The position numbers were made by a program, and so were the translations under genes. This document shows, one piece after another, positions 3,478 to 62,641 of a stretch of 64,000 nt of DNA (within the stretch, counting starts at the first letter, position 1; every line of letters begins with the position of its first letter). The stretch comes from Planctomycetota bacterium (GTDB lineage: Bacteria; Planctomycetota; Brocadiia; SM23-32): the NCBI GenBank assembly GCA_021161675.1, contig JAGHAF010000030.1:9376-73375 (forward strand). The letters run 5' to 3'. Below the pieces are notes generated by a model, which saw nothing but the letters and a program-made list of their open reading frames with translations, was not told where the DNA came from and searched no databases.

Positions 3478-3811
3478 ATACATCGGCGTGGCTATAGTAA
3501 TCGTTGGGCTGGCGTTCGACGTGTTCGGGTGCGTCGGTCTGGTCAGGCTGCCGGATATCTACACGCGCCTTCAGGCAGCCACCAAGTGCGTTACCCTGGG
3601 CACTTGCATGATACTGATCGGGATAGCTATCTTGACGGGCCTGAACGCCACCGGGGTCAAGGCCCTGGTCTGCATGGCCTTCGTCCTGATAACCTCCCCC
3701 ACCGCCGCGCACGCCATCGCCCGTGGGGCCTACAAGTTCGGGGTCAAGCTGGAAGAACCGACCGTCGTTGACCGATATGCCGAGACCCAAACCGACGAGG
3801 GCAGGAGCTAA
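3470..3811 (+). CDS. mrpG: Na+/H+ antiporter subunit MrpG/MnhG
   Basis: Start MNEYIGV overlaps the mrpF stop. RLPDIYTRLQAATKCVTLG matches the MnhG signature. Confidence 0.7.
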   Translation: MNEYIGVAIVIVGLAFDVFGCVGLVRLPDIYTRLQAATKCVTLGTCMILIGIAILTGLNATGVKALVCMAFVLITSPTAAHAIARGAYKFGVKLEEPTVVDRYAETQTDEGRS

Positions 3812-5055: not shown

Positions 5056-5403
5056 ATGCATGAACTCAGCCTATCAGCGGGAATGCTCGACATCGCCCTT
5101 GAAGCCGCGAAGGCGCACGGCCACGCTTTGCGCGCGCTCAACATCAAGGTCGGCGCCCTGTCCAGCGCCAGCGCGGAGGCGCTCGACTTCTGCATGAAGA
5201 TGCTCCTCGATGAGAGAAGCATGGGGGATGTCGAGGTCCGAATCCGGGAGGCGCCGGCCCGGGCGCGCTGCGAATGCGGGTACGAAGGAGAGATCAAGAA
5301 CCTCTTTGAGGGGTGCCCGCGCTGCGGTGGCTTTCAGCGTGACATATTGGACGGCCAGGATGTCACTTTGGACACAATAGAGGTCGCAAATGACAAGGAT
5401 TAA
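5056..5403 (+). CDS. hypA: hydrogenase nickel incorporation protein HypA
   Basis: MHELSL start and C-terminal CxxC...CxxC zinc site. Confidence 0.9.
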   Translation: MHELSLSAGMLDIALEAAKAHGHALRALNIKVGALSSASAEALDFCMKMLLDERSMGDVEVRIREAPARARCECGYEGEIKNLFEGCPRCGGFQRDILDGQDVTLDTIEVANDKD

Positions 5404-6039: not shown

Positions 6040-8352
6040 GTGAATCATTCATCCGAAAGCACAGGCGCTTCACAGCGGCGAGTCCTGCTCAGGATCCGCG
6101 GCAGAGTGCAGGGCGTCGGCTTCCGCCCCACTATTTACCGGGTGGTCACGGCGCGCGGCTGCGCCGGCGCGATCCGCAACACGCCGCAGGGCGTCTTTCT
6201 CGATATCGAAGGCCCGGCAGGAGCCGTCACTGAGATCGTGGACGAGTTCCGGCGCATCATTCCCGAGCGCGCCCGTGTGGACGAACTCCTCATTGAAGAG
6301 GCCCAGCCGATGGGCCGCGATCGGTTCGTAATCGAGCCGAGCGCCACTTGCGGGGACAGCCTCCTGCCGATCCCACCGGACCTGGCCATGTGTCCGGCCT
6401 GCAAGGATGAACTGCATCAACCCGCTAACCGCCGGGCCGCCTATCCCTTCAACACCTGCACCGCGTGCGGCCCGCGTTTTAGCATCGCCCGGGCGGTGCC
6501 CTTCGACCGGCCGACAAGCGCCATGGACGAGTTCCCCCTCTGCGACGCCTGCCGCGCCGAGTATGAAGCCCCGGAGGACCGGCGTTTCCACGCGCAGACG
6601 ATGTCGTGTCCGCGTTGCGGTCCGTCCCTTACGTGGACGCCGAACCTGGACGAGTTGAAGTTCGAATCCTTGGCGCCGCTGGATGCCGCCCGCCGGGCGT
6701 TGGCGCGCGGGCGCATTGTGGCCGTCAAGGGCCTCGGCGGTTTCCATCTGGCCTGCGACGCCACGCGCGAGGAAGTCGTCGCAGAACTGCGCAAACGTAA
6801 GGAGCGCCCGCACAAGCCACTGGCTGTCATGACGCCGGACATCGAGAGCTGCCGCGGGTTGTGCATGGTAAGCCGGGGGGAGGAGGAGCTTCTGCGCTCC
6901 GCCTCCGCGCCTATTGTGCTCCTGAAGAAACGCCCTGCCGCGCCGCTTGCCGCAGGCGTCGCCCCGGGCCTCCGGCACGTCGGGGTTATGCTCGCCTATA
7001 CGCCGGTGCATCACATGCTTTTCGACGCGCCCGAGATGCCGCCCGCCCTCATTATGACCAGTTGCAACCGCGCGGACGAGCCCATCGCAATCAGCGCACA
7101 GGAAGTGCTCGAGAGGCTGGGCGACATCGCAGACGCCGTCCTCAGCAACGACCGGCCGATAATAAACCGCTGTGACGACTCCGTGTTCACCTTCCACGCG
7201 GGCGGCCCCGTCCCCATCCGGCGCAGCCGCGGATACGTGCCAGAGCCGATTCTTCTCGCCCGCGCGGGGCCTTCCGTTTTCGCCACCGGCGCCATGTGGA
7301 AGAACGCCTTCGCCCTGACCAGCGGCAGGCGCGCGTTCCTCAGCCAGCACATCGGGGACGTCTCCGACGCCGACAACGCCGCCCACTTCGAGGAAACGTT
7401 CCGCAGATTCTCCGCCCTGCTCAGGCTCGAGCCGGAGCTGATAGCCTGCGACCTGCACCCCGACTATCCGACCACGGCTTTCGCGCAACGCCTTGCCGAG
7501 GAACGCGGCCTACCGCTGGTCCAGGTCCAGCATCATCACGCCCACGTCGCCGCCACGCTCGCCGAACACCGCATCGAGGGGCGGGCAATCGGCGTGAGCA
7601 TGGACGGCGCCGGTCTCGGAGCGGACGGGGCGATATGGGGCGGTGAGTTCTTCATCGCGGACCAGGCCTCGTACGATCGGAAGTTCCACCTGCGCTACGT
7701 GCCCATGCCCGGCGGAGAGAAGGCCGTCCTCGAGCCCGACAGGATGGCCCTGGCGCACCTAACGGCGGCCGTCGGAGCCGACGAGGCCCGCGCCCGAATG
7801 CAACGATATCTCGGCCCTGAGAGGTGTGCCAGCCTGCTGGAGATCATGAAAAGGCGCCGCTACTCGCCGCCGACCTCAAGCTGCGGGCGCCTTTTCGACG
7901 CCGTCGCCGCGCTGCTGGACGTGCGCCACTCGATAACCTACGAAGGCCAGGCCGCCTGCGAGCTGGAGGCCATCACCGACGAAAGCGAACGCGGCAGCTA
8001 CGCCTTCTGCTACGATGGCGGCGAGATAGACTGCGCGCCGGTCTTCAGACTGGTCTGTGAAGACCTCGACGAGGGGACGAAGGCCCCTGTGATCGCCGCC
8101 CGATTCCACAACGCCGTGGTGGAGATGATCCGCGAGGGATGCCGCCGCCTGCGGGAGGAGACGGGAATCGTCCGGGTTGCCCTTTCCGGAGGGGTGATGC
8201 AAAACAGGCTCCTTGTCGACCGGACAGTGCCTGTCCTGCGCCAGGAGGGCTTCAACGTGCTGCTGCGCCGACGCGTGCCGCCTAACGACGGCGGCATCTG
8301 CCTCGGCCAGGCCGCCTGCGCCATAGCTCAACTTTCAACGACAGGGGGTTAG
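6040..8352 (+). CDS. hypF: carbamoyltransferase HypF
   Basis: 770 aa: acylphosphatase-like N-terminus, two CxxC zinc fingers (CPACK...CTACGPRF, CDACR...CPRCGP), YrdC-like and Kae1-like domains. Confidence 0.9.
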   Translation: MNHSSESTGASQRRVLLRIRGRVQGVGFRPTIYRVVTARGCAGAIRNTPQGVFLDIEGPAGAVTEIVDEFRRIIPERARVDELLIEEAQPMGRDRFVIEPSATCGDSLLPIPPDLAMCPACKDELHQPANRRAAYPFNTCTACGPRFSIARAVPFDRPTSAMDEFPLCDACRAEYEAPEDRRFHAQTMSCPRCGPSLTWTPNLDELKFESLAPLDAARRALARGRIVAVKGLGGFHLACDATREEVVAELRKRKERPHKPLAVMTPDIESCRGLCMVSRGEEELLRSASAPIVLLKKRPAAPLAAGVAPGLRHVGVMLAYTPVHHMLFDAPEMPPALIMTSCNRADEPIAISAQEVLERLGDIADAVLSNDRPIINRCDDSVFTFHAGGPVPIRRSRGYVPEPILLARAGPSVFATGAMWKNAFALTSGRRAFLSQHIGDVSDADNAAHFEETFRRFSALLRLEPELIACDLHPDYPTTAFAQRLAEERGLPLVQVQHHHAHVAATLAEHRIEGRAIGVSMDGAGLGADGAIWGGEFFIADQASYDRKFHLRYVPMPGGEKAVLEPDRMALAHLTAAVGADEARARMQRYLGPERCASLLEIMKRRRYSPPTSSCGRLFDAVAALLDVRHSITYEGQAACELEAITDESERGSYAFCYDGGEIDCAPVFRLVCEDLDEGTKAPVIAARFHNAVVEMIREGCRRLREETGIVRVALSGGVMQNRLLVDRTVPVLRQEGFNVLLRRRVPPNDGGICLGQAACAIAQLSTTGG

Positions 8353-8510
8353 GTATTTAGGCTATTAGACTATTAGTTACGGCAAAGCCAACGCTAAAGC
8401 CAACGGCAAAACTGTGGGCGGAAGCTTTCTTTTTCTGTTTTCATCCTTCATAATCTATCCTTCATCCTTCTGAAAGCGGTGCTGAGAGGTCCCTAAATAG
8501 CAGTTCACAA

Positions 8511-8724
8511 ACTTGCGACATCACATCTGGTGGGACCAGGCCGCCCGAGGCCGATCGGTACCCGTCCGCGTGGCCGGCCCGCCCACACACGGTAGGCGCG
8601 GCGTCCCCGCCGCGCCCGGGTCCGGCGGGGACGCCGGACCTACCGAAGGTGTTGGGTAAGCGCCGCGGGGCCGCGCTGCGGAGGCACTGAGCAGCATGTT
8701 GCATAATCATGAACTTGTATTTAG
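8511..8724 (+). promoter_or_regulatory. conserved element copy A upstream of hypC: conserved 5' block (ACTTGCGACATCACATCTGGTGGG), variable GC-rich hairpin interior, conserved 3' block (GCATGTTGCATAATCATGAACTTGTATTTAG)
   Basis: Termini nearly identical to copy B at 10153..10296. 5' TTGCGACAT can pair with 3' ATGTTGCAT as 8 bp with one G-U. Interior holds a strong hairpin GGCGTCCCCGCCG...CGGCGGGGACGCC. Confidence 0.5.
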
Positions 8725-8744
8725 ACGCTTAGAGTGAAAGAAAA

Positions 8745-8975
8745 ATGTGCCTGGCAATACCACTGAAGATAGTTGAAGTTGAGGGTCAAATCGGCAGAGT
8801 CAAACTGGATGCAACGACCCGCGAGGTGGGTCTCCAGTTACTTGACGACGCTCGCCCCGGCGATTACGTGCTTGTCCATGCCGGTTTCGCGATACAGAAG
8901 TTGGACGAGCAGGAGGCCGAGGAGACGTTGCGCCTGTGGGACGAGATGGCCCGCCTGGAATTGGGACAGCCATGA
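8745..8975 (+). CDS. hypC: hydrogenase assembly chaperone HypC
   Basis: MCLAIP N-terminus, 76 aa. Confidence 0.9.
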   Translation: MCLAIPLKIVEVEGQIGRVKLDATTREVGLQLLDDARPGDYVLVHAGFAIQKLDEQEAEETLRLWDEMARLELGQP

Positions 8976-10111
8976 GATTCATCGACGACTTCCGCAACGC
9001 GGAACATGTCAAGGCGCTCGCCGGGAGCATCGAGAGGCGTGCAGCGCAGGCGGGCAGGCCGTTGCGTTTCATGGAGGTCTGCGGCGGGCATACGATGGCC
9101 ATCCACCGATTCGGCCTTCCGCAACTGCTTCCCGAAAGCGTCGAACTGCTCAGCGGCCCCGGATGCCCCGTCTGTGTCACGCCGACCACGTATATTGATC
9201 GCGCAATTGAGCTGGGCCGCGATGGCGCCCTGCTGACCACGTTCGGCGACCTCTACCGCGTTCCCGGCAGCGAGCGCAGCGTGGAGGGAGCCTCCGCCGC
9301 GGGGCTTCTGGAGGCGCTGGTAGTCTATTCGCCGCGGGACGCCCTTCGCGCCGCTCAGGACAGCCACGACCGAGAGGTCGTGTTCCTCGCCATCGGATTC
9401 GAGACGACCGCGCCGACTGTCGCAGCGACGCTTCTAGAGGCGAAGCGCCTGGGCCTTCGGAACTTCCGCGTCCTGTCGGGACATAAGACCATGCCCCGCG
9501 CCCTCCGCGCTTTGTTAGAAGCGCCCGAGGTGGCGATAGACGGCTTCATTCTGCCGGGCCACGTCTGCACGATAACCGGCGCCAGGCCGTTTACCTTCAT
9601 TCCCGATGAGTTCGGCGTGCCCTGCTGCGTGACGGGGTTCGAACCGGCGGACATCCTGGCGAGCATAGAGAAGCTGACGGAGCTTTGTGGCCCGGGGCGG
9701 CGACCCGCCCTTGAGAACGCCTACCGCCGGGCTGTCCGGCCCGATGGCAACGAGAAGGCCCTCGCCCTACTGGAGCGCGTTATGGTCCCGGTCGACGCCC
9801 AATGGCGTGGGATCGGTCATATCCCGGGGAGCGGACTGGATTTGGGGCCGCAGTGGCTCGAGTTCCGCGTTGAGCCTCCCGACCCGGAGCGGCCCTCCGC
9901 GGAATATAGCGCCTGCCGCTGCGGGGATGTCCTTCGCGGGCTGATCAAGCCTGCGGAGTGTTCCCTCTTCGGCGAGGTCTGCACGCCGGACAGCCCCGTG
10001 GGGCCCTGCATGGTTTCGTCCGAAGGTTCCTGCGCGGCACACTTCAAATATGGTTCCCAAACATTCACCGCAGGGCTCGCAGAGATCGCAGAGAACGGCA
10101 AAGGATATTGA
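8972..10111 (+). CDS. hypD: hydrogenase maturation factor HypD
   Basis: Start MRFIDDFRN overlaps the hypC stop (ATGA). Motifs CGGHT, GPGCPVC and FEP-type C-terminus with CxxC. Confidence 0.9.
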   Translation: MRFIDDFRNAEHVKALAGSIERRAAQAGRPLRFMEVCGGHTMAIHRFGLPQLLPESVELLSGPGCPVCVTPTTYIDRAIELGRDGALLTTFGDLYRVPGSERSVEGASAAGLLEALVVYSPRDALRAAQDSHDREVVFLAIGFETTAPTVAATLLEAKRLGLRNFRVLSGHKTMPRALRALLEAPEVAIDGFILPGHVCTITGARPFTFIPDEFGVPCCVTGFEPADILASIEKLTELCGPGRRPALENAYRRAVRPDGNEKALALLERVMVPVDAQWRGIGHIPGSGLDLGPQWLEFRVEPPDPERPSAEYSACRCGDVLRGLIKPAECSLFGEVCTPDSPVGPCMVSSEGSCAAHFKYGSQTFTAGLAEIAENGKGY

Positions 10112-10152
10112 CTATTACGGCCGGTTTTTCAGTGTCTGAATAGGAGTTCAGG

Positions 10153-10296
10153 AAATTGCAACATCACATCTGGTGGGTCCGGTCCGCGCGAGACCGCTCA
10201 GCAGGCGCCCGCGTAGCCGGTCCCTCCTCACGGGCAGGCGCGGCGCACTCCAGAGGCAGTCAGCGGCATGTTGCATAATCATGAAGTTGTATTTAG
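10153..10296 (+). promoter_or_regulatory. conserved element copy B upstream of hypE (same conserved termini as copy A, shorter and different interior)
   Basis: AAATTGCAACATCACATCTGGTGGG ... GGCATGTTGCATAATCATGAAGTTGTATTTAG. 5' TTGCAACAT is fully complementary to 3' ATGTTGCA. Confidence 0.5.
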
Positions 10297-10373
10297 CGTG
10301 GCGTTAGTGTTCCCTGTGTCCTGAGTGCAGAGAGAAGCCTGAACTCTTACGATGAACCGGCAGAGGAACCAAT

Positions 10374-11384
10374 ATGACTGAAAAGACCATCAAACTGGGA
10401 CACGGCAGCGGCGGCAGCCTTACGCGCGCGCTGATCGAAGAGACTCTGCTGCGCTACTTCGACTCCCCCCTGCTGGCCGGCCTGCCGGACAGCGCGAAGG
10501 TTCAGCTCCAGGGCGTCCCCGCCGCTTTCACCACGGACACCTACGTGGTAGACCCGCTTTTCTTCCCGGGCGGCGACATCGGGAAGCTGGCCGTATACGG
10601 AACGGTCAACGACCTGGCCGTCGTAGGGGCCATCCCGCGCTTTATCTCCTGTGCGCTCATCATCGAGGAAGGGCTCCCGCAATCGGACCTGCGAACCATC
10701 CTGAGTTCCATGCGCCAGGCCGCAGATCACGCAGGCACGGAAGTGGTCACAGGCGATACGAAGGTCGTTCCACGAGGTAAAGCCGATTCGATCTTCATCA
10801 ATACCGCCGGCATTGGCGCGTTCCGCCCGGAGAGCGCCCTGCCCGATGCCGAGATGAAGGCGGGCGACGTCGTACTCGTCAGCGGCCCCATCGGGGACCA
10901 CGGCGCGGCTGTCCTATCGGCGCGAGAGGGCCTGAACCTGGACTCCGCCATCCTGAGCGATTGCGCCCCGGTGACAGAGGTGGCGCAGGCTATCCTCGCC
11001 GGCGCCAGGCGCACGTCGTTCCTGCGCGACGTCACCCGCGGGGGCCTTGTGACCATCCTGAACGAAGCCGTCGGCGGCGCCCCTCTCGGCCTCCTGCTCA
11101 GGGAACAGGACATACCGGTCCGCCCAGGGGTCCGCTCAATCTGCGAGCTATTGGGGCTCGACCCGTTCTACCTCGCCTGTGAGGGGCGGGTGGCGGCAGT
11201 GATTGACGCCGAAAGCGCCCCGATTGTGGTCGAGGCCGTCCGCAGAACCCCTGCAGGACAGGACGCGACGATCATCGGCGAGGCCACCGCAGAGTACGCG
11301 GGAGAAATAGTTATCGAGACGGCCTTCGGGACGCATCGCCTGGTGCAGATGCTCAGCGGGGAGCAACTGCCGCGCATTTGCTGA
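10374..11384 (+). CDS. hypE: carbamoyl dehydratase HypE
   Basis: PurM-like fold, HGSGG N-terminus, C-terminal PRIC. Confidence 0.9.
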   Translation: MTEKTIKLGHGSGGSLTRALIEETLLRYFDSPLLAGLPDSAKVQLQGVPAAFTTDTYVVDPLFFPGGDIGKLAVYGTVNDLAVVGAIPRFISCALIIEEGLPQSDLRTILSSMRQAADHAGTEVVTGDTKVVPRGKADSIFINTAGIGAFRPESALPDAEMKAGDVVLVSGPIGDHGAAVLSAREGLNLDSAILSDCAPVTEVAQAILAGARRTSFLRDVTRGGLVTILNEAVGGAPLGLLLREQDIPVRPGVRSICELLGLDPFYLACEGRVAAVIDAESAPIVVEAVRRTPAGQDATIIGEATAEYAGEIVIETAFGTHRLVQMLSGEQLPRIC

Positions 11385-18064: not shown

Positions 18065-19747
18065 GTGAAAGTCCTGGTGCCCGATAAAATGAACGAAGAG
18101 CGCCTCAGCACAGCCGTGGACGGCCCGAACAGCCTCGCGGCCGGAGAGTTCGCCCCGGAGGGCCGGGAGGCGCTGGAACTGGCCATCCTCAGCGAGGTAA
18201 GCCGCACCATAGGCGACGCCCTCGAGCTGGAGAAGGTTTTCGAGGAGACAATGCGCGTCCTGGCAGGAAAGCTGCGGATGAAACGGGGCACGTTGGTGCT
18301 GCTGGACAGGACAGCTAATCGCCTAAAAATCGTAGCCGCTCATGGCCTGAGCCCCCAGGAAAAGCAACGAGGAAAATACCGGATAGGCGAAGGAGTTACT
18401 GGAAGGGTTGTGAAAACGGGGCAACCGGTCGCAATAGCAGATATCTGCAAGAACCCCTTATTCTTGAATCGCACTGGAGCCAGAGGCGCCGAGAAGGAGC
18501 GCGGCCACGTATCCTTCGTATGCGTCCCGCTGCGCGTGGACAACGAAGTCGTGGGCGCTATCAGCATAGACCGCGACTTCGTGGACGAGCAGACCCTCGC
18601 CAAGGACCAGCGCCTCCTCCATATAATCGGATCACTTATATCCCAAGCCATCAAGATAAACCGAATGGTGATGATAGACAGGCAACTGTTGCTCGATGAG
18701 AACGTCCGCCTGCGCAAGGACCTGACGTCCCGCTACAAGTTCGGCAGTATCGTGGCCGTCAGCGGCGCCATGAAGGACGTAGTCGCCACGGCGGCCACCG
18801 TCGCCAAGAGCGGCGCCACCGTCCTGATACGCGGCGAGACCGGCACGGGCAAGGAACTGATAGCAAGCGTGCTGCACTATAACAGCGACCGGGCGAAAGG
18901 CCCCTTTATAAAGGTCAATTGCAGCGCATTATCCGAAGGGCTGCTGGAGACCGAACTTTTCGGCCACGTCCGAGGCGCCTTCACCGGCGCCGTCGAGGAC
19001 CGCAAAGGCAGATTCGAGCTTGCCGACGGCGGCACGATATTCCTGGACGAAGTGGGCTCGATGAGCGAACAGCTCCAGGCAAAGCTTTTGCGCGTGCTCC
19101 AGGAGAGAGAATTCGAGCGGGTCGGCGGCGCCAAAACCATCGAGATTGACGTGCGAGTCGTTGCGGCGACAAACATGGACCTGGAGGAGCTTATGTCAGA
19201 AGGCGCCTTCAGGCAAGACCTGTTCTACCGCCTCAACGTGATACCCATCTTCATACCCCCCTTGCGAGAACGCCGGGAGGATATCCAGTTTCTGGTGCAG
19301 CATTTCCTGGACAAGTATAATGAACATTACGGCAAGGCCGTAGAGAAGATGTCTCGCCAGGTCATGGACGCGCTGCTGGAATATCCCTGGCCCGGCAACG
19401 TGCGTGAACTGGAAAGCTGCATCGAAAGGGCTGTCGTTCTCAGCCAGGACGGCGCCCTATCGATGAGTCTTCTGCCGATAAACATCCGCAGTTTCAGAGA
19501 ATCAGAAAGGCGCCCGGGGCCCATTCGGCAAGCTTCTGAGGATGTTCTGGCGCAGTTGATAAAGGGTCTACGCTCATCACACGTGTCAGGCGCGTCCGGT
19601 CTGCACACCACCGTTATATCACAGGTCGAGAAGGCGCTGCTAACAGAAATACTCGAAGCCAATGATCACGTGCAAACTCGAGCCGCCAGAGAGCTGGGCA
19701 TAACCCGTAACACTCTGCGCAAACGGATAAGAGAGTACGGACTTTAG
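18065..19747 (+). CDS. sigma-54-dependent transcriptional activator with N-terminal GAF domain (FhlA/HyfR/NifA-like)
   Basis: GAF region, AAA+ sigma-54 interaction domain (GETGTGKE Walker A, GAFTGA, ESELFGH, WPGNVREL), C-terminal Fis-type HTH. GTG start; alternative ATG at 18092. Confidence 0.85.
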   Translation: MKVLVPDKMNEERLSTAVDGPNSLAAGEFAPEGREALELAILSEVSRTIGDALELEKVFEETMRVLAGKLRMKRGTLVLLDRTANRLKIVAAHGLSPQEKQRGKYRIGEGVTGRVVKTGQPVAIADICKNPLFLNRTGARGAEKERGHVSFVCVPLRVDNEVVGAISIDRDFVDEQTLAKDQRLLHIIGSLISQAIKINRMVMIDRQLLLDENVRLRKDLTSRYKFGSIVAVSGAMKDVVATAATVAKSGATVLIRGETGTGKELIASVLHYNSDRAKGPFIKVNCSALSEGLLETELFGHVRGAFTGAVEDRKGRFELADGGTIFLDEVGSMSEQLQAKLLRVLQEREFERVGGAKTIEIDVRVVAATNMDLEELMSEGAFRQDLFYRLNVIPIFIPPLRERREDIQFLVQHFLDKYNEHYGKAVEKMSRQVMDALLEYPWPGNVRELESCIERAVVLSQDGALSMSLLPINIRSFRESERRPGPIRQASEDVLAQLIKGLRSSHVSGASGLHTTVISQVEKALLTEILEANDHVQTRAARELGITRNTLRKRIREYGL

Positions 19748-20009
19748 CCCGCTGGTTACGTTGTGCCCAGGTGGGCGCCTCGTAACCAGCGGCCCGTGTG
19801 TTCTCAGCAGCAGGGCCGATCTTTACCCCTCGGCGTATGTCCCTTTGCTGCGAGAGGTTGCGAGCAGCCCGGCGGTACTGCAGGCCTTCTCGCGGGTACT
19901 TTGGCACGAGGCTTGCTCTACTACTTCTCTCCTTATGTAGTCACAGAGCAAGCTTTGCTACGGTGCTCATCCCCCGAACCGGGAAACATAACCGAAGGAG
20001 TTTCTGAAC

Positions 20010-21257
20010 ATGGCGGATTTTAACGCGTTCGCCGTCGCACAGCAGCAGATCGATACGTGTGCACAGATTCTGGAGCTGCCCTCCAGCGTCCACGAAATGC
20101 TCCGCGCCCCCAAGCGGGAAATCCGTGTTTCCCTGCCCGTGAAGATGGACGACGGATCGGTGAAGGTCTTCCGGGGCTTTCGCGTCCAGTATAACGATGC
20201 GCTCGGTCCGACGAAGGGCGGCATCCGCTTCCACCCCGACGAGACCATCGACACTGTCCGGGCACTGGCGGCCTGGATGACATGGAAATGCGCGCTGGTT
20301 GACATCCCGCTCGGCGGCGCCAAGGGGGGCGTCATCTGCGATCCGAAGCAAATGTCCGCCGGCGAGTTGGAACGCCTCAGCCGGGCTTACATCCGTGCCA
20401 TGGCCCGTTTCATCGGACCGGAGACGGACATTCCGGCGCCCGATGTTTACACGACTCCGCAGATGATGGCCTGGATGATGGACGAATACTCCACGATCCG
20501 GCAGAAGAACCAGTTCGGCGTCATCACGGGCAAGCCGCTGCCTGTCGGGGGTTCGGCGGGCCGCGGCGACGCCACCGCACGCGGCGGCTGGTACGTCATA
20601 CGCGAGGCCGCCGAAGTGTGCGGCGTCGAGCTGGACGGCGCCATAGTAGCCATCCAGGGCTACGGGAACGCCGGAGCCTACGCGGCGAGACTCGCCACCG
20701 AAACCTATGGGTGCAAAGTTATCGCCGTCAGCGATAGCAAGGGCGGCATCACCAACCGCAACGGATTGGAGCCTGACGCCGTTGCACGCCACAAGGCGGA
20801 CACGGGCTCCGTGGTCGGCTTCCCGGGCTCAGAACCGGTTTCCAACGAGGCGCTGCTCGAGCTGGACGTTGACATTCTCATCCCGGCGGCACTCGAGAAC
20901 GTCATCACCGAAAGCAACGCCCCCAACGTGAAGGCGAAGATCGTCGGCGAGCTGGCCAACGGCCCGACGAGCCCCGAGGCGGACGATATACTTCATGCCG
21001 GCGGCGTGCACGTGCTGCCGGACTTCCTGTGTAACGCCGGCGGCGTGACCGTTTCCTACTTCGAGATGGTGCAGAACGCCTACATGTACTACTGGGACTT
21101 GGAGCAGGTCCACCGGCGGCTCGACGCCACGATGACGACGGCATACCGCGCCGTGCTCGACGTGGCCAGGGAGTATAACATTAACATGCGTCAGGCGGCC
21201 TACGTCGTAGCTGTCCGCCGCGTGACCGAAGCGATGCAACTGCGCGGTTGGGTCTGA
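20010..21257 (+). CDS. gdhA: glutamate dehydrogenase (Glu/Leu/Phe/Val dehydrogenase family)
   Basis: [12 protein letters not shown] and [10 protein letters not shown] motifs, 415 aa. Confidence 0.9.
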
Positions 21258-21370: not shown

Positions 21371-22825
21371 ATGCGATTGGATCGACGTATGCCGTCCGGC
21401 GCCGGCGAGAAACCCCGCGAGGACTGTGGCATAATCGGAATATATGGCGTCCAGCGCGCCGCCGAACTCGTCTATGCCGGCCTGCACGCACTTCAACATC
21501 GTGGCCAGGAGTCCGCCGGGATAGTCGCCTCTGACGGTGCGCGCATTCATAGCAGAAAAGGGCTCGGCCTGCTATCGGAAGCCATTGACCGGCACGAACT
21601 CCATGACCTGTGCGGCCACATTGCCGTCGGGCACGTGCGTTACTCGACCACCGGCGCGAAGCGTGTTCAGAATATCCAGCCCCTTGTGACAGAATACTCA
21701 CGCGGCATCACCGTCATAGCGCACAATGGCAATCTGACGAACGCCCGGGCTCTGCGCCGGCTGTATCAATCGCACGGCTCTATATTCCAGACCTCCACCG
21801 ACAGCGAGATCATCGTTCACCTCCTGGCCGATCCTCAGCACGATAAGGCGCCCGACCCCCTTGCCAGCGCCCTCGGCCGCGTGGAGGGCGCTTACTCGCT
21901 GGTGCTTATGGACGCTTCCAATCTCGTGGCGGCTCGGGACCCGCATGGCTTCCGCCCGCTCTCCCTTGGCGCGCTGGAGGACGGTTACGTGGTCGCCAGC
22001 GAAACATGCGCCCTGGACCTTCTGGGCGCGGAGTTCATCCGGGACGTTGGGCCGGGCGAAATCATTGAGTTCGGAGAAGGCCGGCCGAATTCCAGGTATT
22101 TAGGCCGGCGCGACGGCAACCGGCTTGCGCACTGCATATTCGAGCACATTTACTTTGCCCGTCCGGACAGCGTGGTGTTCGGCGAGACCGTCCACAACGT
22201 CAGACGCAGACTCGGAGAAAACCTTGCAAGCGCCTGCCCCGTGGACGCTGACGTCGTTTGCCCCGTGCCGGACTCCGGCGACTGCGCTGCGCTCGGATAC
22301 TGCCATCGCTCCGGCATTCCGCTGGGCAGAGGGTTCGTGCGCAATCATTACATCGGGCGCACGTTCATCACACCGGCCGAAGAATCTCGTTCCTTCGGCG
22401 TGAAGATGAAGCTCAACGTGGTCCGGGACGTTGTTGCGGGGAAACGGGTCATCGTAGTGGACGACTCGATCGTGCGGGGCACCACCTGCAAGGCCCGAAT
22501 TCATACCCTTCGAGAAGCAGGCGCAAGGCAAGTGCATCTTCGTATCAGCGCTCCCCCTATCCGGTTCCCGTGTTTCTACGGGATTGACTTCCCCCACGCT
22601 GGCGAATTGATAGCCGCCGAGAAGTCCGTGGAAGAGATCCGCCGTTTTCTCGGGATTGACAGCCTTGGCTACCAGTCGGTCGAGGGGCTGCTCGCCGCCG
22701 TCCCGACTTCCAGAGACAGTTATTGTCTCGCATGCTTCACCGGTGAATACCCGGTCGAAGTCTCAGAGGACATGGGCAAGTACGCTATGGAGACGGGGCG
22801 CAGGGCTTACGACGAATCGAGATAG
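21371..22825 (+). CDS. purF: amidophosphoribosyltransferase
   Basis: CGIIGIYG N-terminal nucleophile region, PRTase motif VVDDSIVRGTT, C-terminal Cys ligands. Confidence 0.9.
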   Translation: MRLDRRMPSGAGEKPREDCGIIGIYGVQRAAELVYAGLHALQHRGQESAGIVASDGARIHSRKGLGLLSEAIDRHELHDLCGHIAVGHVRYSTTGAKRVQNIQPLVTEYSRGITVIAHNGNLTNARALRRLYQSHGSIFQTSTDSEIIVHLLADPQHDKAPDPLASALGRVEGAYSLVLMDASNLVAARDPHGFRPLSLGALEDGYVVASETCALDLLGAEFIRDVGPGEIIEFGEGRPNSRYLGRRDGNRLAHCIFEHIYFARPDSVVFGETVHNVRRRLGENLASACPVDADVVCPVPDSGDCAALGYCHRSGIPLGRGFVRNHYIGRTFITPAEESRSFGVKMKLNVVRDVVAGKRVIVVDDSIVRGTTCKARIHTLREAGARQVHLRISAPPIRFPCFYGIDFPHAGELIAAEKSVEEIRRFLGIDSLGYQSVEGLLAAVPTSRDSYCLACFTGEYPVEVSEDMGKYAMETGRRAYDESR

Positions 22826-56700: not shown

Positions 56701-58754
56701 GTTTTGCGCAGGCGATATTCCTGATGGGTTCGGTTGCGGTTCTGGCCCCTGTGCTTGCGCATCTTTTTGCGCGGCCCCGCTTCCGGCGCCTGCCCTTCAC
56801 GCTGCTTCGTTTCTTGCGCGCCGGCCAGAAGGACGTCCAGGCCAGAAGGAAGCTGCGCGACCTGCTGCTCCTACTGCTGCGATGCGCGATAATAGTGCTG
56901 ATTGCCATGCTCTTCGCCGGCCCCAGGTTGCTGGCGCGCTCACCAGGCAGCAACGCGCGTGACCTTTACTTCCTCGGCCTGGATAATTCGCTCTCCATGG
57001 CCTATAGCGACGGCCCGCAGAGCTACTTCCAAAGCATGCTCGATGCGGCCGCCGATTACATCCGCTCGGCGCCCTCGGGCTCCCTGTTCAACCTGTATGC
57101 GCTGGCCTCCGGCGAGCGCGGCGCCAACCTGAGCAGTGAGCAGGCGCTTGCCTTCCTTCGGCAGCTTGCCGTCGTGCCCTCCGTCTCCGAGCCGGACGGA
57201 TTTATCGGCGCCCTTCGCAGCGCCCAGCAGCGCCGCCATCCGGACGACAGGATCAGTTCGCTGCTGCTCAGCGATTTCACGCCGAAGATGATGGAGCGCC
57301 TGGGCGAACTGAGCGGCCCTGTCCTCGTTGACGACGCCCGCTATAAGATGATCTCCTCTGAGGGGCCGATCCATAACGCCGCACCGGTTGATGCGCACGT
57401 CACGGATCTGGCGCAGGGCAAGCTGCACGTCAGCGCTACGGTCGCCAACTACGGATCAGTCACAAAGCCCCGCGCTCTGGAGGCGCGCCTGGGCGGCAAG
57501 AAGGCCGCCGCCGTGCAAGTCGCTGCCGCAGCCACTCAGAATTACCGCCTCGCCATCCCGGTTGAGGGCGCGCGGCAGGCCGAGTCGTGCCTTCCGATAG
57601 AGCTTTCCCTCTCCGGCGGAGACGGCCTGCGGGAGGATGATACGTTCTACCTGGCGGCCATCCTGCCCGAGGAAAGCAAGAGGCAGGTCGTACTGATAGG
57701 AAGCGACAGGCGGGAACTGTTCCTGCTGAGAACGGCTCTGAACTCACTCTCGCTGATGAACGCTTATGAGACGGTGAGTGTGAAGGAGGCAACATTCGCG
57801 GCGTCTCACGGCGAGGCCCTGGCCGGCGCCGACGTGGCCGTCTTCGCGGGCATGCCAGATGCGCTCAGCGATGGGGCTGACGAGATAAGCTCCTTTGTTC
57901 AGAACGGCGGAAGGGCCGTTTTCTTCCTGACCAGGGACCTTAGCGCCGATGCGCTCGACAGGCTGTGGCGCGCGGACGTTCTGCCCGCCCTCCCCCGCCG
58001 CTACCACGAGGGGGCGACCCACGTGGCGCCGAGCAACGTCTACACCGACGCGTTGAGCCCCGACGGCAAAGCCATCAAAGCCCTGTGTAATTACAAAATC
58101 GAGACGATCCTCTTCCTCGGCTCCTTTGACTGCGAGCAGTCGCCGGCAGGCGCATGTCTGTGGCGATTGCAGAACGGCAACGGTTTTGTCTATTTCAAAC
58201 ACCATGGCAACGGCAGCGCAGTATTGATCAACACGAGCGCCGATGATTCACTTGGCGCCCTGACCAGGTCCAGGGCGGCCGTTGCGTTCTGCAGATATCT
58301 GCTGGGCCCATCCACTGCGCCCCTTCAGAACAGCTTCGCCTCTGACGAGACCATAGTTCTGGCCCTGCCGCAATCCGAATCGGAAGACGCCGCCCAAGAG
58401 CGCCGGCTCTACGTGATGACGCCCTCCGGAGAGCCGTGCGCCGCCCAGGTGTCTGGTTCGACCGCATCGGTGCAGTGCCCGCATCAGATCGGATGGGTCA
58501 AGACGCTGACAAGGCCCGCCAGCTACGCCGGGGTGAACCCGCCCAGGGGCGAGACGGACATGCAGGCGCCCGCCAAGGAGGTCGTCGCCGACCTGATGGG
58601 ACGTATCTTCCCCGTCGCGGAGGGGAAGGATATGGCCGCGGCGTCCCGGAATGGGCTCGACAAAGACAACCGACCGATCTGGCGCTTCTTTGCGTGGCTC
58701 ATCATTGGACTAGTCCTGTTCGAATCATTCGTCGCCAATAAGGTGAAACGATAA
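56697..58754 (+). CDS. BatA-type N-terminal double-TM domain protein with large extracytoplasmic region
   Basis: Two N-terminal TM helices with the aerotolerance-operon N-domain pattern (LLRFLRAG...RKLRDLLLLLLR), a C-terminal TM, 685 aa. Confidence 0.5.
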   Translation: MSFAQAIFLMGSVAVLAPVLAHLFARPRFRRLPFTLLRFLRAGQKDVQARRKLRDLLLLLLRCAIIVLIAMLFAGPRLLARSPGSNARDLYFLGLDNSLSMAYSDGPQSYFQSMLDAAADYIRSAPSGSLFNLYALASGERGANLSSEQALAFLRQLAVVPSVSEPDGFIGALRSAQQRRHPDDRISSLLLSDFTPKMMERLGELSGPVLVDDARYKMISSEGPIHNAAPVDAHVTDLAQGKLHVSATVANYGSVTKPRALEARLGGKKAAAVQVAAAATQNYRLAIPVEGARQAESCLPIELSLSGGDGLREDDTFYLAAILPEESKRQVVLIGSDRRELFLLRTALNSLSLMNAYETVSVKEATFAASHGEALAGADVAVFAGMPDALSDGADEISSFVQNGGRAVFFLTRDLSADALDRLWRADVLPALPRRYHEGATHVAPSNVYTDALSPDGKAIKALCNYKIETILFLGSFDCEQSPAGACLWRLQNGNGFVYFKHHGNGSAVLINTSADDSLGALTRSRAAVAFCRYLLGPSTAPLQNSFASDETIVLALPQSESEDAAQERRLYVMTPSGEPCAAQVSGSTASVQCPHQIGWVKTLTRPASYAGVNPPRGETDMQAPAKEVVADLMGRIFPVAEGKDMAAASRNGLDKDNRPIWRFFAWLIIGLVLFESFVANKVKR

Positions 58755-61700
58755 TGGCCCCCGCGGCGGAAGAAGCGCTCAGACATCTTGTCATGCGGGT
58801 CAAAGAGGTAAGGCGCTGGCTGGTCGCCCTCTCAGCGCTGAAGGTGGCCGCGCTGCTCTTTCTGTTCGTGACGGTGTACGTAGCCGTCTTCGCCTATGCG
58901 GACCATCACCTGCACATGGGGCTCACGGCGCGGCTTGCGGCGCTCTGCCTGCTGATCGCCGGGTCGTGTGGGGCGCTCTATGCGCTCGCCAGGTCACTGA
59001 TTTCTCACGTATCGTGCAGCCGCGCGGCGAATCACATCGAGAGCAAGATCAGCTTCCGCCAGCAGCTCGTTACGGCCATCGAGTACGACGAGAATAAGGC
59101 AGACTACCTCTATTCCGAGGCGCTGGCCGACTGCGTGGTGCAGCGGGTCTTTGAAGCCAGCGCGGACATAGATTTCAAGACCACCGTCGCCAGGCGTAAT
59201 GCCTACCTGTTTTCTGTAATGATAGCCCTCGGTATGTGCGGCGTGCTCTTTTTCGCGCACAACCACTATGTATTCTTCTCCACTTACCTGGCGCGGCTGA
59301 CACGGCCGCTTGAGCAAGTCGAGCCGATTCCAACCACCGAGCTGATAGCCCTGACGGGAGACATCGTTACCGAACCTGACGTGAAAATCCGCCTGGCAGC
59401 GGAAATCAGAGGGCGCATCCCCAAGAAGGGCCTGCTGGTAATCGAGGACACGCGGCCCGCCCCGCCCTACGGCCATCCGCAGGTCATAGAGACCCAACCC
59501 CGCGCCGATGGTGAGGGGCCGCCGCGCCTGGAGGAAGAGCTTTCGCTGAAACGCGGCGACTACCGCTACCGGTTCGAGGCCGGAAAAGCCGCCAGTTACC
59601 GGCACAAGATACACGTTTCATCCGTGCCTAAGATAGCAAGCATGACGGCGCGTGTCACCCTGCCCGGGGACACTGCGATCCAGCCGTATGTCGAGGACGT
59701 GCAGGACTTTACCCTGAGCGTTATCGAAGGTTCTGAGATCGAACTCACCGTCAGGGCGACCGAGAAACTGAGCAAAGCCCTTGTGACGGGCTTGAACGGG
59801 CAAGTAGTCGAAGCGCAGCCCGAGATGAACGGCTCGTTCATAATGCCCTTCAAAGCTGACAGGGAAGGCGAGTTGAAGTTGGAACTTGTGGGCGAAGAGA
59901 ACGTTGCGAACCGGGACATCCCGCCCTTGAGGATTGAGTTCCGAGAGCTCTCCTCCCCTCGGATAGAGCTGGTTTCGCCCGAGCGCGACTATATGGCCAC
60001 AAACGTCGCGAGCGTGCCCGTGACATTCCAACTCTATGATGACTTCGGCTTGCAGAAAGCCGCAATCTATTTCGAGTTCCCCAACGGGGAGCGCAGACAG
60101 ATAGGAATGCCGCTCGAGCGCGGCGTCCGAAGCGCAACGGACACTTACACGCTGGAGCTGGAAGACTACGACCTGAGCGTGGGCGATGCCATCGTGTTCC
60201 ACGCGGAGGCGAGCGGCATCCGGATCGCAACTCCGAAACCGCAGAACCGCGCATCGAAGAGCAATATCTACTTCGTCGAGATCATTCCATACAGGTCCTG
60301 GTGGCAGGCGAGCCAGGATTTAGATATAGGAGGCGAGCTCTACGTAATTGAGACGCTCAAAGATATCCTGGAATACACCCGCGCCATACTCAAGAAAACC
60401 TGGGCCCTGACTGACAAAGAGGAGTTGACAGCGCAGGACAAGTCGCAGCTCGATTCCATCAACGAAGACGTCACTTACAGCGCCGAGCATCTGCGAACTG
60501 TCCGCGACAGCCCGGTCTTTCAGTTTACGCCGGCCGAGATCGCTGCGATCAACGGCGTCCTGGCCGATTTCGACGAAGCAAGCGCCCAGCTTGCGGGCTA
60601 CGACCCCGCTTCCGCGCTGCCCCCCGAGGACAAGGCATATCGAACGCTCCGCAAGCTGGTTGGCGAAAAATGGAAGGAGCCGCCCGCCCACGGGCCAGGC
60701 TTCACCCCACCCAGCAAGCCTAAGCCTGACACGATTGAAGTCGTCAAGAATACCTACCTGCGCAAGTACGACAGCGAAGCGATCGCCCAAATGTTTGACA
60801 CGCTGACTCGCAAACTCGCCGCGGCGACCTACCACGAGGAAAACCTGAAGAAAGAGTTCGACCGTTTCCTTGCCGAACAGCGAGAGCCTCCCATCCACAG
60901 AGGCAGCCCGGAAACACCTGAGTCCGGCGCAGGAGACCAAAGCGGCGAGGGCGAGGGCGAAGGTTCGGGGCAACGAAGCAGCCAACAGGAGCAAGGCCAA
61001 GAGTCGGAGGCGGGGCAGGCCCAAGCCCCTGGCGAGAGCGACAACACACAGGCTCAAGGGCAGGAACCCGGAGCCGGCGAGGGCGAAGGCCAGGGGCAGG
61101 CGAGCAGCGCACAGGCCCGGCAGGCGCCCTCTGGCGCCGCCCCTGCCGAGGGAGGCGGCGCGGAGCCCGCCCAGCCCCCACCGGACCAGCCGGGAGTCGA
61201 GGGCCAGGGAGAAGGCGAGGGTCAAAGTGAAAGCGCACAGCCGCAAGCCCAGGAACCCGCGCCGGGCCAGCGCGGCGCCCCCGGTCACGGAGGCGCATCA
61301 GAAGGGCAGGCCCAACAGTCGGCTCCAGACCAAGGTGAGGGTCAGAAAGGCAGCCCACAGTCGGAAACCCGGGAACCGACCTCAACCCAGGGCGGCGCTG
61401 CCGGTCCGGGAGTCGGATCAGGAGCTAAGACCGAAGAATCGGCTTCGCCAGGCGGCCAGGGCCACGGAGGCGCATCGGGAGCGGATGCCGAAGAAACGGG
61501 TTCGGGCGAGGGCCTGGGCCAGGGAGGCCCACGAAGGGCAGGAAGCCGGCAGTTTCGCTCGAACGGAGGCGAAGCCCACGGAGGCGCATCAGGAACGGAA
61601 GCCGAAAAATCAGGTTCGGGCGGTTTCTCCGGCAAGACCGCCCACCGTGAGGGCGCTCAGTCCGGCGGCAGCCAGGGCAAAAGCGAGGACGAGGGAGGCG

Positions 61701-62641
61701 CATCAGGAACGGAAACCGAAAAATCGAGTACGGGGGCCTCCTCTGACAAATCCGGCGCCCGGCAGCGAGACCAGGCCGGCGGCGCTCAGGGAAAGGGCAA
61801 AGCCAGGGGCCACGGAGGCGTATCAGGCGCGCAAGCCGGAGAGTCGGGATCGAGCGGCTCTTCCGGCAGGGCGAGCTCACAGGAACGTATGCAAATGTTT
61901 CAGGCCAAACAGGCGGCTCTGCGAGAAGCGGCCTCGCAGATGAAAGCCGACCTCGCGCGGTTGCCTTCCGACGTAGGCACGCGCGAGGACGATGGGCAGA
62001 AAGGCACACCAAAGGCGGATGCCGACAAGCACCTGGCCCGCGCAATCACGAGCATGGAGGAGTTTGACGAGAAGATGCACGAGGCGCAGTTCAAAAGCCT
62101 TGCGAGTGACAAATCCGCCGCCGAGGGTTTGCGGAAGGCTCTCCAGAAAGCGTCTGAGGAGCTTGCGCTTGCCAGCAGTGCTCTCCGCAAGAAGTTGAGC
62201 GACACCCGGGAAGAGCTGGCTTCATATTACCAGGACCGCGCAGAGAAACTCTTCCAGTTGGCGCAGACCCTTGAAAAGCGCCTCACGCCCGCCCAGGAGA
62301 AGCGGATAATGGCACAGCTCCTGGAGGCGAAGGAACTCCTTGATAACGCCGCAAAGTCGCAGCCGAGCGCGAACTCATCTGCAGCGCCGAGCGATCTCGC
62401 CGCGCGTGCGCAGGCCGGCCCCGGCCATCTCCTCAACGATCAAGAGCTCTGGCGAGTCAACCCCAAAGCAGAAGAAGCGCGCCTGCTGGCGCGCCAATTC
62501 CTGGCTCTCGCCATCCGGACGGCGAAAAAGCAGAGCAAGCTAATTGAACAGGAAGTGTCTGATGCGGACTTCCACGAGATGGAAAGTAAATTCTTCGAGA
62601 ACGCGGCCAGGTACGACAGCCGCGAGACGGATGGCGAATGA
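58754..62641 (+). CDS. large membrane-anchored hypothetical protein with a ~400-aa acidic Gly/Ser/Gln/Glu-rich disordered region of ~38-aa tandem repeats and a C-terminal coiled-coil region
   Basis: One uninterrupted 1295-codon frame. N-terminal TM helices. Repeats HGGASG(A/T)(D/E)AE(E/K)(T/S)GSG between about aa 900 and 1050. ATGA overlap with the next gene. Confidence 0.5.
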   Translation: MAPAAEEALRHLVMRVKEVRRWLVALSALKVAALLFLFVTVYVAVFAYADHHLHMGLTARLAALCLLIAGSCGALYALARSLISHVSCSRAANHIESKISFRQQLVTAIEYDENKADYLYSEALADCVVQRVFEASADIDFKTTVARRNAYLFSVMIALGMCGVLFFAHNHYVFFSTYLARLTRPLEQVEPIPTTELIALTGDIVTEPDVKIRLAAEIRGRIPKKGLLVIEDTRPAPPYGHPQVIETQPRADGEGPPRLEEELSLKRGDYRYRFEAGKAASYRHKIHVSSVPKIASMTARVTLPGDTAIQPYVEDVQDFTLSVIEGSEIELTVRATEKLSKALVTGLNGQVVEAQPEMNGSFIMPFKADREGELKLELVGEENVANRDIPPLRIEFRELSSPRIELVSPERDYMATNVASVPVTFQLYDDFGLQKAAIYFEFPNGERRQIGMPLERGVRSATDTYTLELEDYDLSVGDAIVFHAEASGIRIATPKPQNRASKSNIYFVEIIPYRSWWQASQDLDIGGELYVIETLKDILEYTRAILKKTWALTDKEELTAQDKSQLDSINEDVTYSAEHLRTVRDSPVFQFTPAEIAAINGVLADFDEASAQLAGYDPASALPPEDKAYRTLRKLVGEKWKEPPAHGPGFTPPSKPKPDTIEVVKNTYLRKYDSEAIAQMFDTLTRKLAAATYHEENLKKEFDRFLAEQREPPIHRGSPETPESGAGDQSGEGEGEGSGQRSSQQEQGQESEAGQAQAPGESDNTQAQGQEPGAGEGEGQGQASSAQARQAPSGAAPAEGGGAEPAQPPPDQPGVEGQGEGEGQSESAQPQAQEPAPGQRGAPGHGGASEGQAQQSAPDQGEGQKGSPQSETREPTSTQGGAAGPGVGSGAKTEESASPGGQGHGGASGADAEETGSGEGLGQGGPRRAGSRQFRSNGGEAHGGASGTEAEKSGSGGFSGKTAHREGAQSGGSQGKSEDEGGASGTETEKSSTGASSDKSGARQRDQAGGAQGKGKARGHGGVSGAQAGESGSSGSSGRASSQERMQMFQAKQAALREAASQMKADLARLPSDVGTREDDGQKGTPKADADKHLARAITSMEEFDEKMHEAQFKSLASDKSAAEGLRKALQKASEELALASSALRKKLSDTREELASYYQDRAEKLFQLAQTLEKRLTPAQEKRIMAQLLEAKELLDNAAKSQPSANSSAAPSDLAARAQAGPGHLLNDQELWRVNPKAEEARLLARQFLALAIRTAKKQSKLIEQEVSDADFHEMESKFFENAARYDSRETDGE
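61440..61900 (+). repeat. four degenerate tandem DNA repeats of ~110-118 nt inside the giant ORF
   Basis: Recurring ggccacggaggcgcatcaggaacggaagccgaaaaatc...ggttcgggcgg units starting near 61467, 61575, 61693 and 61810. Confidence 0.6.

Follow-up and report, generated by a model that had tools for sequence, protein, structure and literature searches.

The hyp locus of an uncultured Planctomycetota lineage raises the question of why two related, structured, non-coding blocks stand directly before two of its hydrogenase maturation genes. In the 64,000-nt stretch of DNA analysed here (the window; contig JAGHAF010000030.1, assembly GCA_021161675.1), the + strand reads hypA, hypB, hypF, a 392-nt gap, hypC, hypD, a 262-nt gap and hypE, followed by the subunits of a NiFe hydrogenase. 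One copy of the element lies in each gap: copy A between hypF and hypC, and copy B between hypD and hypE. A preliminary description, made from the sequence alone, had drawn attention to the conserved, base-pair-compatible termini of the two copies and had named a cis-regulatory RNA leader and a small mobile element with terminal pairing among the candidates. The latter gives the best fit. With an estimated probability of about 0.55, both copies are ancient, diverged members of a new low-copy family of small palindromic repeats, non-coding and similar to miniature inverted-repeat transposable elements (MITEs). The element measures 161-232 nt, carries 29-nt terminal inverted repeats (TIRs), lacks coding capacity and does not occur in the compact operons of relatives. 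The conserved termini are its inverted-repeat arms.

Extent, termini and core of the repeat

A and B are homologous over their whole length, with 77% identity across the first ~111 nt and 85% across the last 60 nt, and both have the same orientation (+) inside the hyp run. The 3' ends given in the preliminary description agree with ours, but its 5' starts had to be moved, as both the homology and the inverted repeat begin ~18 nt earlier, at CTRAATAG... (8493 in A, 10136 in B). The near-identical blocks that it had reported near either end stand as described: the 5' block TTGCRACATCACATCTGGTGGG occupies exactly two sites (8513-8534 and 10156-10177), as does the 3' block GCATGTTGCATAATCATGAASTTGTATTTAG (8694-8724 and 10266-10296), whose two versions are 30/31 identical. 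Shuffles give an expectation of 0 chance matches for these blocks, and a third site for either was not found in the window even at three mismatches. Outside the 3' block, identity between the copies is 72-77%. The direct repeats TTGCAT-N10-TTGTAT are present in the 3' block, and the copies lie shortly upstream of hyp start codons, as had been stated, the measured distance from the 3' end of the element being 20 nt for hypC (copy A) and 77 nt for hypE (copy B). The interiors had been called divergent in both length and sequence. The difference in length is real and amounts to one ~70-nt indel (~8603-8673 in A, missing from B), but the divergence in sequence does not survive alignment, given the identities above. 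Similarly, the island said to be shared by the interiors holds as AGGCGCGGCG but not beyond it, where the sequence is TAGG (part of GGTAG) in A and CAGG in B. The 70-nt indel and further small indels between the copies interrupt every reading frame, and a six-frame pseudo-protein search for open reading frames (ORFs) mis-called on other copies gave no match.

Several assemblies from ENA, JGI and Logan contain near-identical contigs of the hyp locus. In five assemblies the sequences of A and B agree, the differences being a few single-nucleotide polymorphisms (SNPs) and a 12-nt change in repeat number upstream of A; since all five carry the same sequences, the two copies are not an assembly artefact. 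Both copies are present in all close strains. Four metagenome contigs (the starts of L043, L045 and L046, and the end of L042), which come from three samples, each assembled independently, are interrupted no more than ~55 nt from the 3' end of B. The breaks correspond to window positions 10289-10350, where strain SNPs cluster (CTGAACTCTTACG versus CTGAAGTCCTACG), and they likely reflect strain heterogeneity rather than repeat collapse.

Each copy is bounded by a 29-nt imperfect TIR with 21/29 Watson-Crick matches (Table 1), a number that 0 of 2000 shuffles of the ends reached in any 29-nt window. The complementarity between TTGCRACAT and ATGTTGCA, which had been recognized earlier, is the inner third of this repeat. 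The strong local inverted repeats of the window are those of A and B only, and no further match to the TIR was found in it with up to 3 mismatches allowed. The 3' arm of A also holds a -10-like CATAAT and the ATG of a 13-codon candidate upstream ORF (uORF).

The GC-rich core enclosed by the arms is built of hairpins like those of repetitive extragenic palindromes (REPs). An A-specific palindrome of 56 nt (8590-8645) consists of two 25-nt hairpins in inverted orientation, both with GTAG in front, in the form of a REPIN-like doublet; the hairpins are GC-rich, with an 8-9 bp stem and a 4-nt loop. At the homologous place B has only GGCAGGCGCGGCG, so that B is most simply a deletion derivative. A third version of the element, on the metagenome contig L004 described below, has a third REP-like unit, which indicates that the number of units varies between genomes. 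No further copy of the unit was found in the window or in non-orthologous fetched loci.

The preliminary description had read the single G/A difference between the two copies as the signature of a conserved RNA helix. This substitution does switch a G-U to an A-U at that pair, but no strand-consistent pattern extends over the 29-position stem, in which G-U wobbles number 1 on the + strand and 3 on the - strand in A, and 2 and 0, respectively, in B. The stems of A and B differ by two switches from Watson-Crick pair to wobble, two pair gains, one loss and two exchanges of one mismatch for another. No change in the terminal stem is matched by a compensating change at its partner position, and a further pair is lost in one strain variant of B. 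Predicted folds are strong for A (-124.9 kcal/mol, z -5.6, on the + strand; -123.8 kcal/mol, z -4.8, on the - strand) and weaker for B (-63.6 kcal/mol, z -2.4, and -56.7 kcal/mol, z -1.6), and the arms close the structure on both strands. The covariation test suggested earlier returned a penalty (RNAalifold covariation term +1.12 kcal/mol), with changes on both sides in 1/51 pairs, a test of low power with three independent versions. The suggested Rfam scan matched no family at gathering thresholds over the whole window, and the best E-value in 8300-10450 was 1.9 in a search at E<=10. Nothing in the evidence favours a selected RNA helix.

A consensus scan of 8300-10450 detected no sigma-70-type promoter on either strand and no intrinsic terminator; for this reason the copies are probably transcribed through within the hyp mRNA. 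Within this RNA, the arms would pair to give a discontinuous stem of ~21 bp that closes the multi-hairpin core. By analogy with REP/BIME, Correia/NEMIS and ERIC elements, such a structure could serve as a nuclease barrier or as a target of RNase III, and it might uncouple translation of the downstream gene from that of the upstream gene. Any effect on hyp expression would then be a by-product or a secondary co-option, not the action of a dedicated sensor.

Hyp junctions in relatives and distribution of the repeat

The identical Hyp proteins are recorded as MCD6415508-MCD6415511 in a Planctomycetota metagenome-assembled genome (MAG). The closest non-self HypD is 71% identical, and the named matches are likewise Planctomycetota MAGs. 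In three relatives (L017, L019 and L049; HypD 66-71% identical), hypF, hypC, hypD and hypE overlap or lie 1-4 nt apart. Because the hypF|hypC and hypD|hypE junctions of all three are compact, A and B are taken to be lineage-specific insertions, and these relatives, with no intergenic space there, contradict the idea that hyp genes are preceded by a conserved cis-regulatory leader. The element would thus have entered formerly tight junctions in this Planctomycetota lineage. HypD of the window ends in a 16-aa C-terminal tail, TFTAGLAEIAENGKGY, without counterpart past the conserved ...KYGSQ end of the relatives. The left flanks of A, B and the L004 copy are mutually unrelated, and homology ends at the arms; since nothing outside the arms is homologous, the repeated unit is the TIR-bounded segment. 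Short tandem repeats make up the DNA between the upstream genes and the elements; those with 12-nt units lie at 8383-8415 and those with 9-nt units at 10069-10094, and repeats with units of 8 and 7 nt are found at 8357-8376 and 8440-8470. The 12-nt GCAAAGCCAACG-type repeat has one unit more (+12 nt) in L002, and contig L044 terminates within it.

Other relatives carry hairpins at the same junctions. In L020, a hairpin whose arms are of the AGTGAATAGTGAGAAGT type is present twice between hypD and hypE. L050 has four junction hairpins in 9 kb: a perfect one of 36 bp, its arms consisting of tandem AACTTTATCCTS 12-mers, separates hypF from hypC, other members of its family follow the preceding gene and hypE, and the hypD-hypE gap contains a hairpin of GTGACTCG repeats. 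All of these have AT-rich arms of tandem 8-12-mers, near-perfectly complementary, and GC-rich loops, and they stand directly after stop codons at co-directional junctions. They show no sequence similarity to A or B, and literature searches found no description of tandem-repeat-armed hairpin elements of this type. Long hairpins were located at 996-1108, 3594-3731, 5294-5390 and 6460-6605 in L050, and at 11082-11348 and 18592-18677 in L020. From these unrelated junction hairpins, invasion of co-directional gene junctions by hairpin-forming repeats seems to be common in this Planctomycetota clade.

The third version of the element comes from a scan of JGI metagenomes with a 19-mer of the 3' block, in which L004 was the only genuine one of 13 matches. 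L004 covers the region 5' of a hypC that is 98-99% identical to that of the window, and the gene upstream of the element is a kinase-like ORF, not hypF. The first 108 nt of the L004 element are only 87% identical to A (94/108); its remainder, beginning with the REP-like units, matches A exactly except for the additional unit. This abrupt switch in identity points to recombination with a third paralogous copy, so that the mosaic implies a third paralogue, as far as can be judged from one metagenome contig of 1.9 kb. The junction with the kinase gene, seen in one JGI sample, points to a rearrangement in a sister strain, with its breakpoint at the element or close to it, unless the contig is chimeric. 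The sister-strain contig L041, which carries the kinase gene, has no copy of the element downstream of it. The ends of the kinase-like gene differ between the two contigs (L004 1-570 versus L041 8876-9760), reading ...GKRNTSAE* in L004, where the final codons have been exchanged, and ...GKQ* in L041.

The preliminary description had proposed looking for further copies in this and related genomes; searches of genomes, metagenomes, plasmids and fetched loci yielded only the orthologous mosaic in L004. Within the window, blastn-short and profile searches found no copy beyond A and B, and an nhmmer profile of A, B and L004 run against ~400 kb (the window and fetched loci, including ~35 kb of extra sister-strain sequence) recovered the known copies only. 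In species genomes, the 5'-arm pattern gave 0 matches, and TTGCRACATCACATCTGG gave 20 matches, none of them element-like beyond the word itself. A BLAST search of plasmids found no homologue, and in a scan of viral contigs none was recognised, two 18-mer viral matches being uninspected.

Several leads were discarded. A 22-nt match in L015 sits in unrelated AT-rich DNA, and GTATTTAG/AGTTCA at 22032-22103 of the window falls within a coding ORF and is attributed to chance. A tRNA or tRNA-like origin of CTGGTGGG was rejected: ARAGORN predicts no tRNA anywhere in the 64 kb, and the 21-nt matches to two Acidoferrum MAGs simply adjoin a tRNA-Thr and are no better than expected by chance. A dif/Xer site, an integron attC site, an IS26-like inverted repeat and a retron msr/msd were dropped by eye, the required motifs, spacing or neighbour genes being absent.

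Alternative explanations and further features of the window

Several observations weigh against the interpretation of A and B as dispersed MITE-like insertions. The 3' arms of A and B are identical at 28/29 positions but the 5' arms at only 22/29, which simple decay of a TIR would not predict. No target-site duplication can be read in the flanks CTAA...TTAG, CTGA...TTAG and ATCC...TTAG, a weak negative because the copies are old. Unrelated filler separates the upstream genes from the elements. Two exact-pattern scans of 185,579 species-representative genomes found no copy, and no parent insertion sequence (IS) or transposase was found in the genome, JGI metagenome, plasmid or viral scans, which were scans for exact words only. 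Finally, the 64 kb and the ~35 kb of strain contigs together contain only two copies, which share one orientation and both lie in the hyp run; this would not be expected of a sparse repeat that inserts at random. The confinement to the hyp run, the unequal conservation of the arms, the missing duplication and the unrelated filler keep three other explanations alive.

The unequal conservation would be accounted for if the 3' arm, possibly together with the 5' block, were a DNA-level module, i.e. an internal promoter or operator through which hypCD and hypE would have regained transcription once the operon had been split. The contrast between the 3' block and the remainder of the element, the common orientation, the position 20-77 nt 5' of a start codon and a -10-like CATAAT that is invariant at 8702-8707 and 10274-10279 all agree with this, and the arms, 103-174 bp apart, may act as a pair of binding sites. 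Outward promoters are known to be created by Correia elements and by the ends of ISs. However, the scan for sigma-70-type promoters was negative on either strand and no -35 element lies 16-18 nt 5' of CATAAT, a negative that carries little weight because the promoter rules of Planctomycetota are poorly known. A sigma-54 promoter in the 3' block was also rejected, as both copies read GGCAC-N11-TTGCA in place of the required TGGCAC-N5-TTGC (GG-N10-GC), the sole perfect site of the window being at 19902. With no palindromic operator evident either, this explanation is unlikely. A hyp-specific cis-regulatory RNA leader would explain the confinement to the hyp run instead. Here a long-range helix would sequester the AUG of a short uORF, MLHNHE[L/V]VF, and translation of the uORF or a trans-acting factor would remodel the structure and so control synthesis of HypC and HypE. 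The uORF ATG indeed lies within the ATGTTGCA half of the stem, GGAGG or AGAGG stands 11 nt 5' of the uORF in both copies, the shared codons differ by a single, conservative substitution (L to V), and the stop of the uORF in A is 7 nt from the hypC ATG; the + strand z-scores given above also fit. No such leader occurs in any relative, though, three of them being compact and L020 and L050 having unrelated hairpins, and Rfam and covariation lend it no support. In addition, copy A pairs better on the - strand than on the +, the two peptides differ in sequence and length past codon 9, and one strain variant has Y in place of F, with the loss of a stem pair; at 15-40 nt, the shared codons do not suffice for a test of coding selection. 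We regard such a leader as slightly more doubtful still than the promoter or operator.

That the two copies bracket exactly hypC-hypD as direct repeats could also mean that they mark a recombination scar or cassette boundary left by exchange or re-insertion of hypCD, in which case the pair would derive from one local duplication and not from two insertions. The scarcity of copies elsewhere and the L004 contig, in which a mosaic element and hypCD adjoin a different gene, point in this direction. L004 is, however, a single 1.9-kb metagenome contig, and with identities between A and B of only 75-87% any duplication must be old. Furthermore, the relatives already have hypFCDE in the same order without repeats, and the gene table lists no recombinase or integrase adjoining the hyp cluster. 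This is the least probable of the three. A further scenario, about as unlikely as the uORF leader, combines insertion with function: the repeat may have been co-opted as a hyp-specific control module, through a promoter in the 3' arm or a conserved 9-codon uORF whose AUG the terminal helix conceals, which would make the expression of hypCD and hypE separate from that of hypABF; or the clade may recurrently recruit unrelated hairpins to hypF|hypC and hypD|hypE because decoupling is advantageous.

For annotation, the interpretation as palindromic repeat insertions means that structured blocks of 160-230 nt 5' of hypC and hypE should not be filed as metal- or redox-sensing leader RNAs. They are best read as insertions that separated the genes of a formerly compact operon and added 16 residues to HypD. 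If the repeat is dispersed across the full genome, it would constitute an undescribed MITE-like family in Planctomycetota, and A and B, together with the unrelated junction hairpins of relatives, would illustrate the remodelling of operon junctions by such elements in the phylum. A bearing on the regulation of hydrogenase maturation genes would follow only if the 3' arm drives or gates expression. The coordinates of the repeat and its neighbours are collected in Table 1.

Table 1. Features of the hyp locus and of element copies A and B (window positions)
Feature	Positions	Strand	Remarks
hypF	6040..8352	+	Pfam families on the identical gene in L001
AT-rich filler, hypF stop to element A	8353..8492	+	8-, 12- and 7-nt tandem repeats; not homologous to flanks of B or L004
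Element copy A, 232 nt, hypF-hypC gap	8493..8724	+	Homology to B and L004 from ~8493-8497 to 8724
5' arm of A, CTAAATAGCAGTTCACAAACTTGCGACAT	8493..8521	+	21/29 complementary to 8696-8724
Conserved 5' block of A, TTGCGACATCACATCTGGTGGG	8513..8534	+	21/22 identical to B
REP-like unit 1, GGTAG-GCGCGGCG-TCCC-CGCCGCGC	8591..8615	+	GTAG-tagged hairpin
REP-like unit 2, inverted, GGTAG-GTCCGGCG-TCCC-CGCCGGAC	8620..8644	-	Pairs with unit 1 into palindrome
3' arm of A, ATGTTGCATAATCATGAACTTGTATTTAG	8696..8724	+	28/29 identical to 3' arm of B
Candidate uORF in A, MLHNHELVFRRLE*, speculative	8696..8737	+	13 codons; stop 7 nt 5' of hypC ATG
hypC	8745..8975	+	3' of 392-nt gap
hypD	8972..10111	+	379 aa; relatives 362 aa
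Filler left of B	10061..10135	+	First 48 nt (10061-10108) encode HypD tail; includes 9-nt tandem repeat
Element copy B, 161 nt, hypD-hypE gap	10136..10296	+	Probable deletion derivative, ~70 nt of core gone
5' arm of B, CTGAATAGGAGTTCAGGAAATTGCAACAT	10136..10164	+	Paired with 3' arm, 21/29
3' arm of B, ATGTTGCATAATCATGAAGTTGTATTTAG	10268..10296	+	28/29 identical to 3' arm of A
Candidate uORF in B, MLHNHEVVFSVALVFPVS*, speculative	10268..10324	+	ATG in 3' arm
hypE	10374..11384	+	3' of 262-nt gap

Two further observations concern the window outside the hyp locus. A perfect sigma-54 consensus, TGGCACGAGGCTTGCT, lies at 19902-19917 (+), ~90 nt 5' of a glutamate dehydrogenase ORF (20010-21257) and directly 3' of a GAF/sigma-54-activator/HTH_8 gene (18089-19747) that ends in a 21-bp hairpin (19749-19792); from their arrangement, the activator gene and the dehydrogenase ORF look like a pair of enhancer-binding protein and target. 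An ORF of 1295 aa (58754-62641) contains periodic repeats of 114-126 nt at 60943-61856, with at least 6 copies that are 66-83% identical, which suggests a repeat-domain protein; its exact sequence is not on record in the collection searched.

Comparison with known repeats

Correia/NEMIS elements are inserted beside or between co-directional genes and are co-transcribed with them, their long hairpins affect mRNA processing and stability, and some carry outward promoters. A and B resemble these elements of Neisseria, as well as ERIC/IRU, RUP and Nezha, in being non-coding repeats of the 100-300 bp class with TIRs of ~26-30 nt between co-directional genes. They differ from Correia/NEMIS-type MITEs in having no TA or other target duplication, two copies seen and one inferred, no known parent transposase, unequally conserved arms and a GC-rich core of REP-like hairpins, and they show no sequence similarity to any described MITE family. 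Bacterial MITEs are characterized by a size of 70-300 bp, TIRs of 15-30 bp and a lack of coding capacity (PMC3733652). The sizes of 161 and 232 nt, the 29-nt TIRs and the lack of coding capacity of A and B agree with this, and a target-site duplication, a further mark of MITEs, was not found.

GTAG-tagged REPs consist of a GC-rich palindrome of 20-40 bp with an unpaired GTAG at one end and often occur as inverted doublets (Di Nocera et al., 2013; PMC3733652). The nested units of A fit this structural definition, and they resemble GTAG REPs and REPINs (PMC3733652; Bertels and Rainey, 2011) in their 25-nt GTAG-tagged hairpins, in the inverted doublet that folds into a larger structure and in their varying number. 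In contrast to GTAG REPs, which normally exceed 100 copies per genome, they have no other copy in the 64 kb or the non-orthologous fetched loci; they are embedded in a larger TIR-bounded repeat and not free-standing, and no RAYT gene was seen.

Repeats between hyp genes have a precedent among cyanobacteria in the extended hyp operon of Nostoc PCC 7120, in which short genome-wide repeats, some of them hairpin-forming, occupy intergenic regions including hypF-hypC and are co-transcribed (PMC2408588). They are 11-23 nt long, are present in 11-79 copies per genome and have been suggested to be relics of transposition, their function being unknown (PMC2408588). A and B differ from them in their length of 161-232 nt, their TIRs, their low copy number and their occurrence in another phylum, and share no sequence similarity with them. 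The junction hairpins of L050 and L020 differ from A and B in their arms of tandem 8-12-mers and their near-perfect complementarity, but they are alike in having AT-rich arms and GC-rich loops, in occupying the hypF|hypC and hypD|hypE junctions and in being present in at least two local copies.

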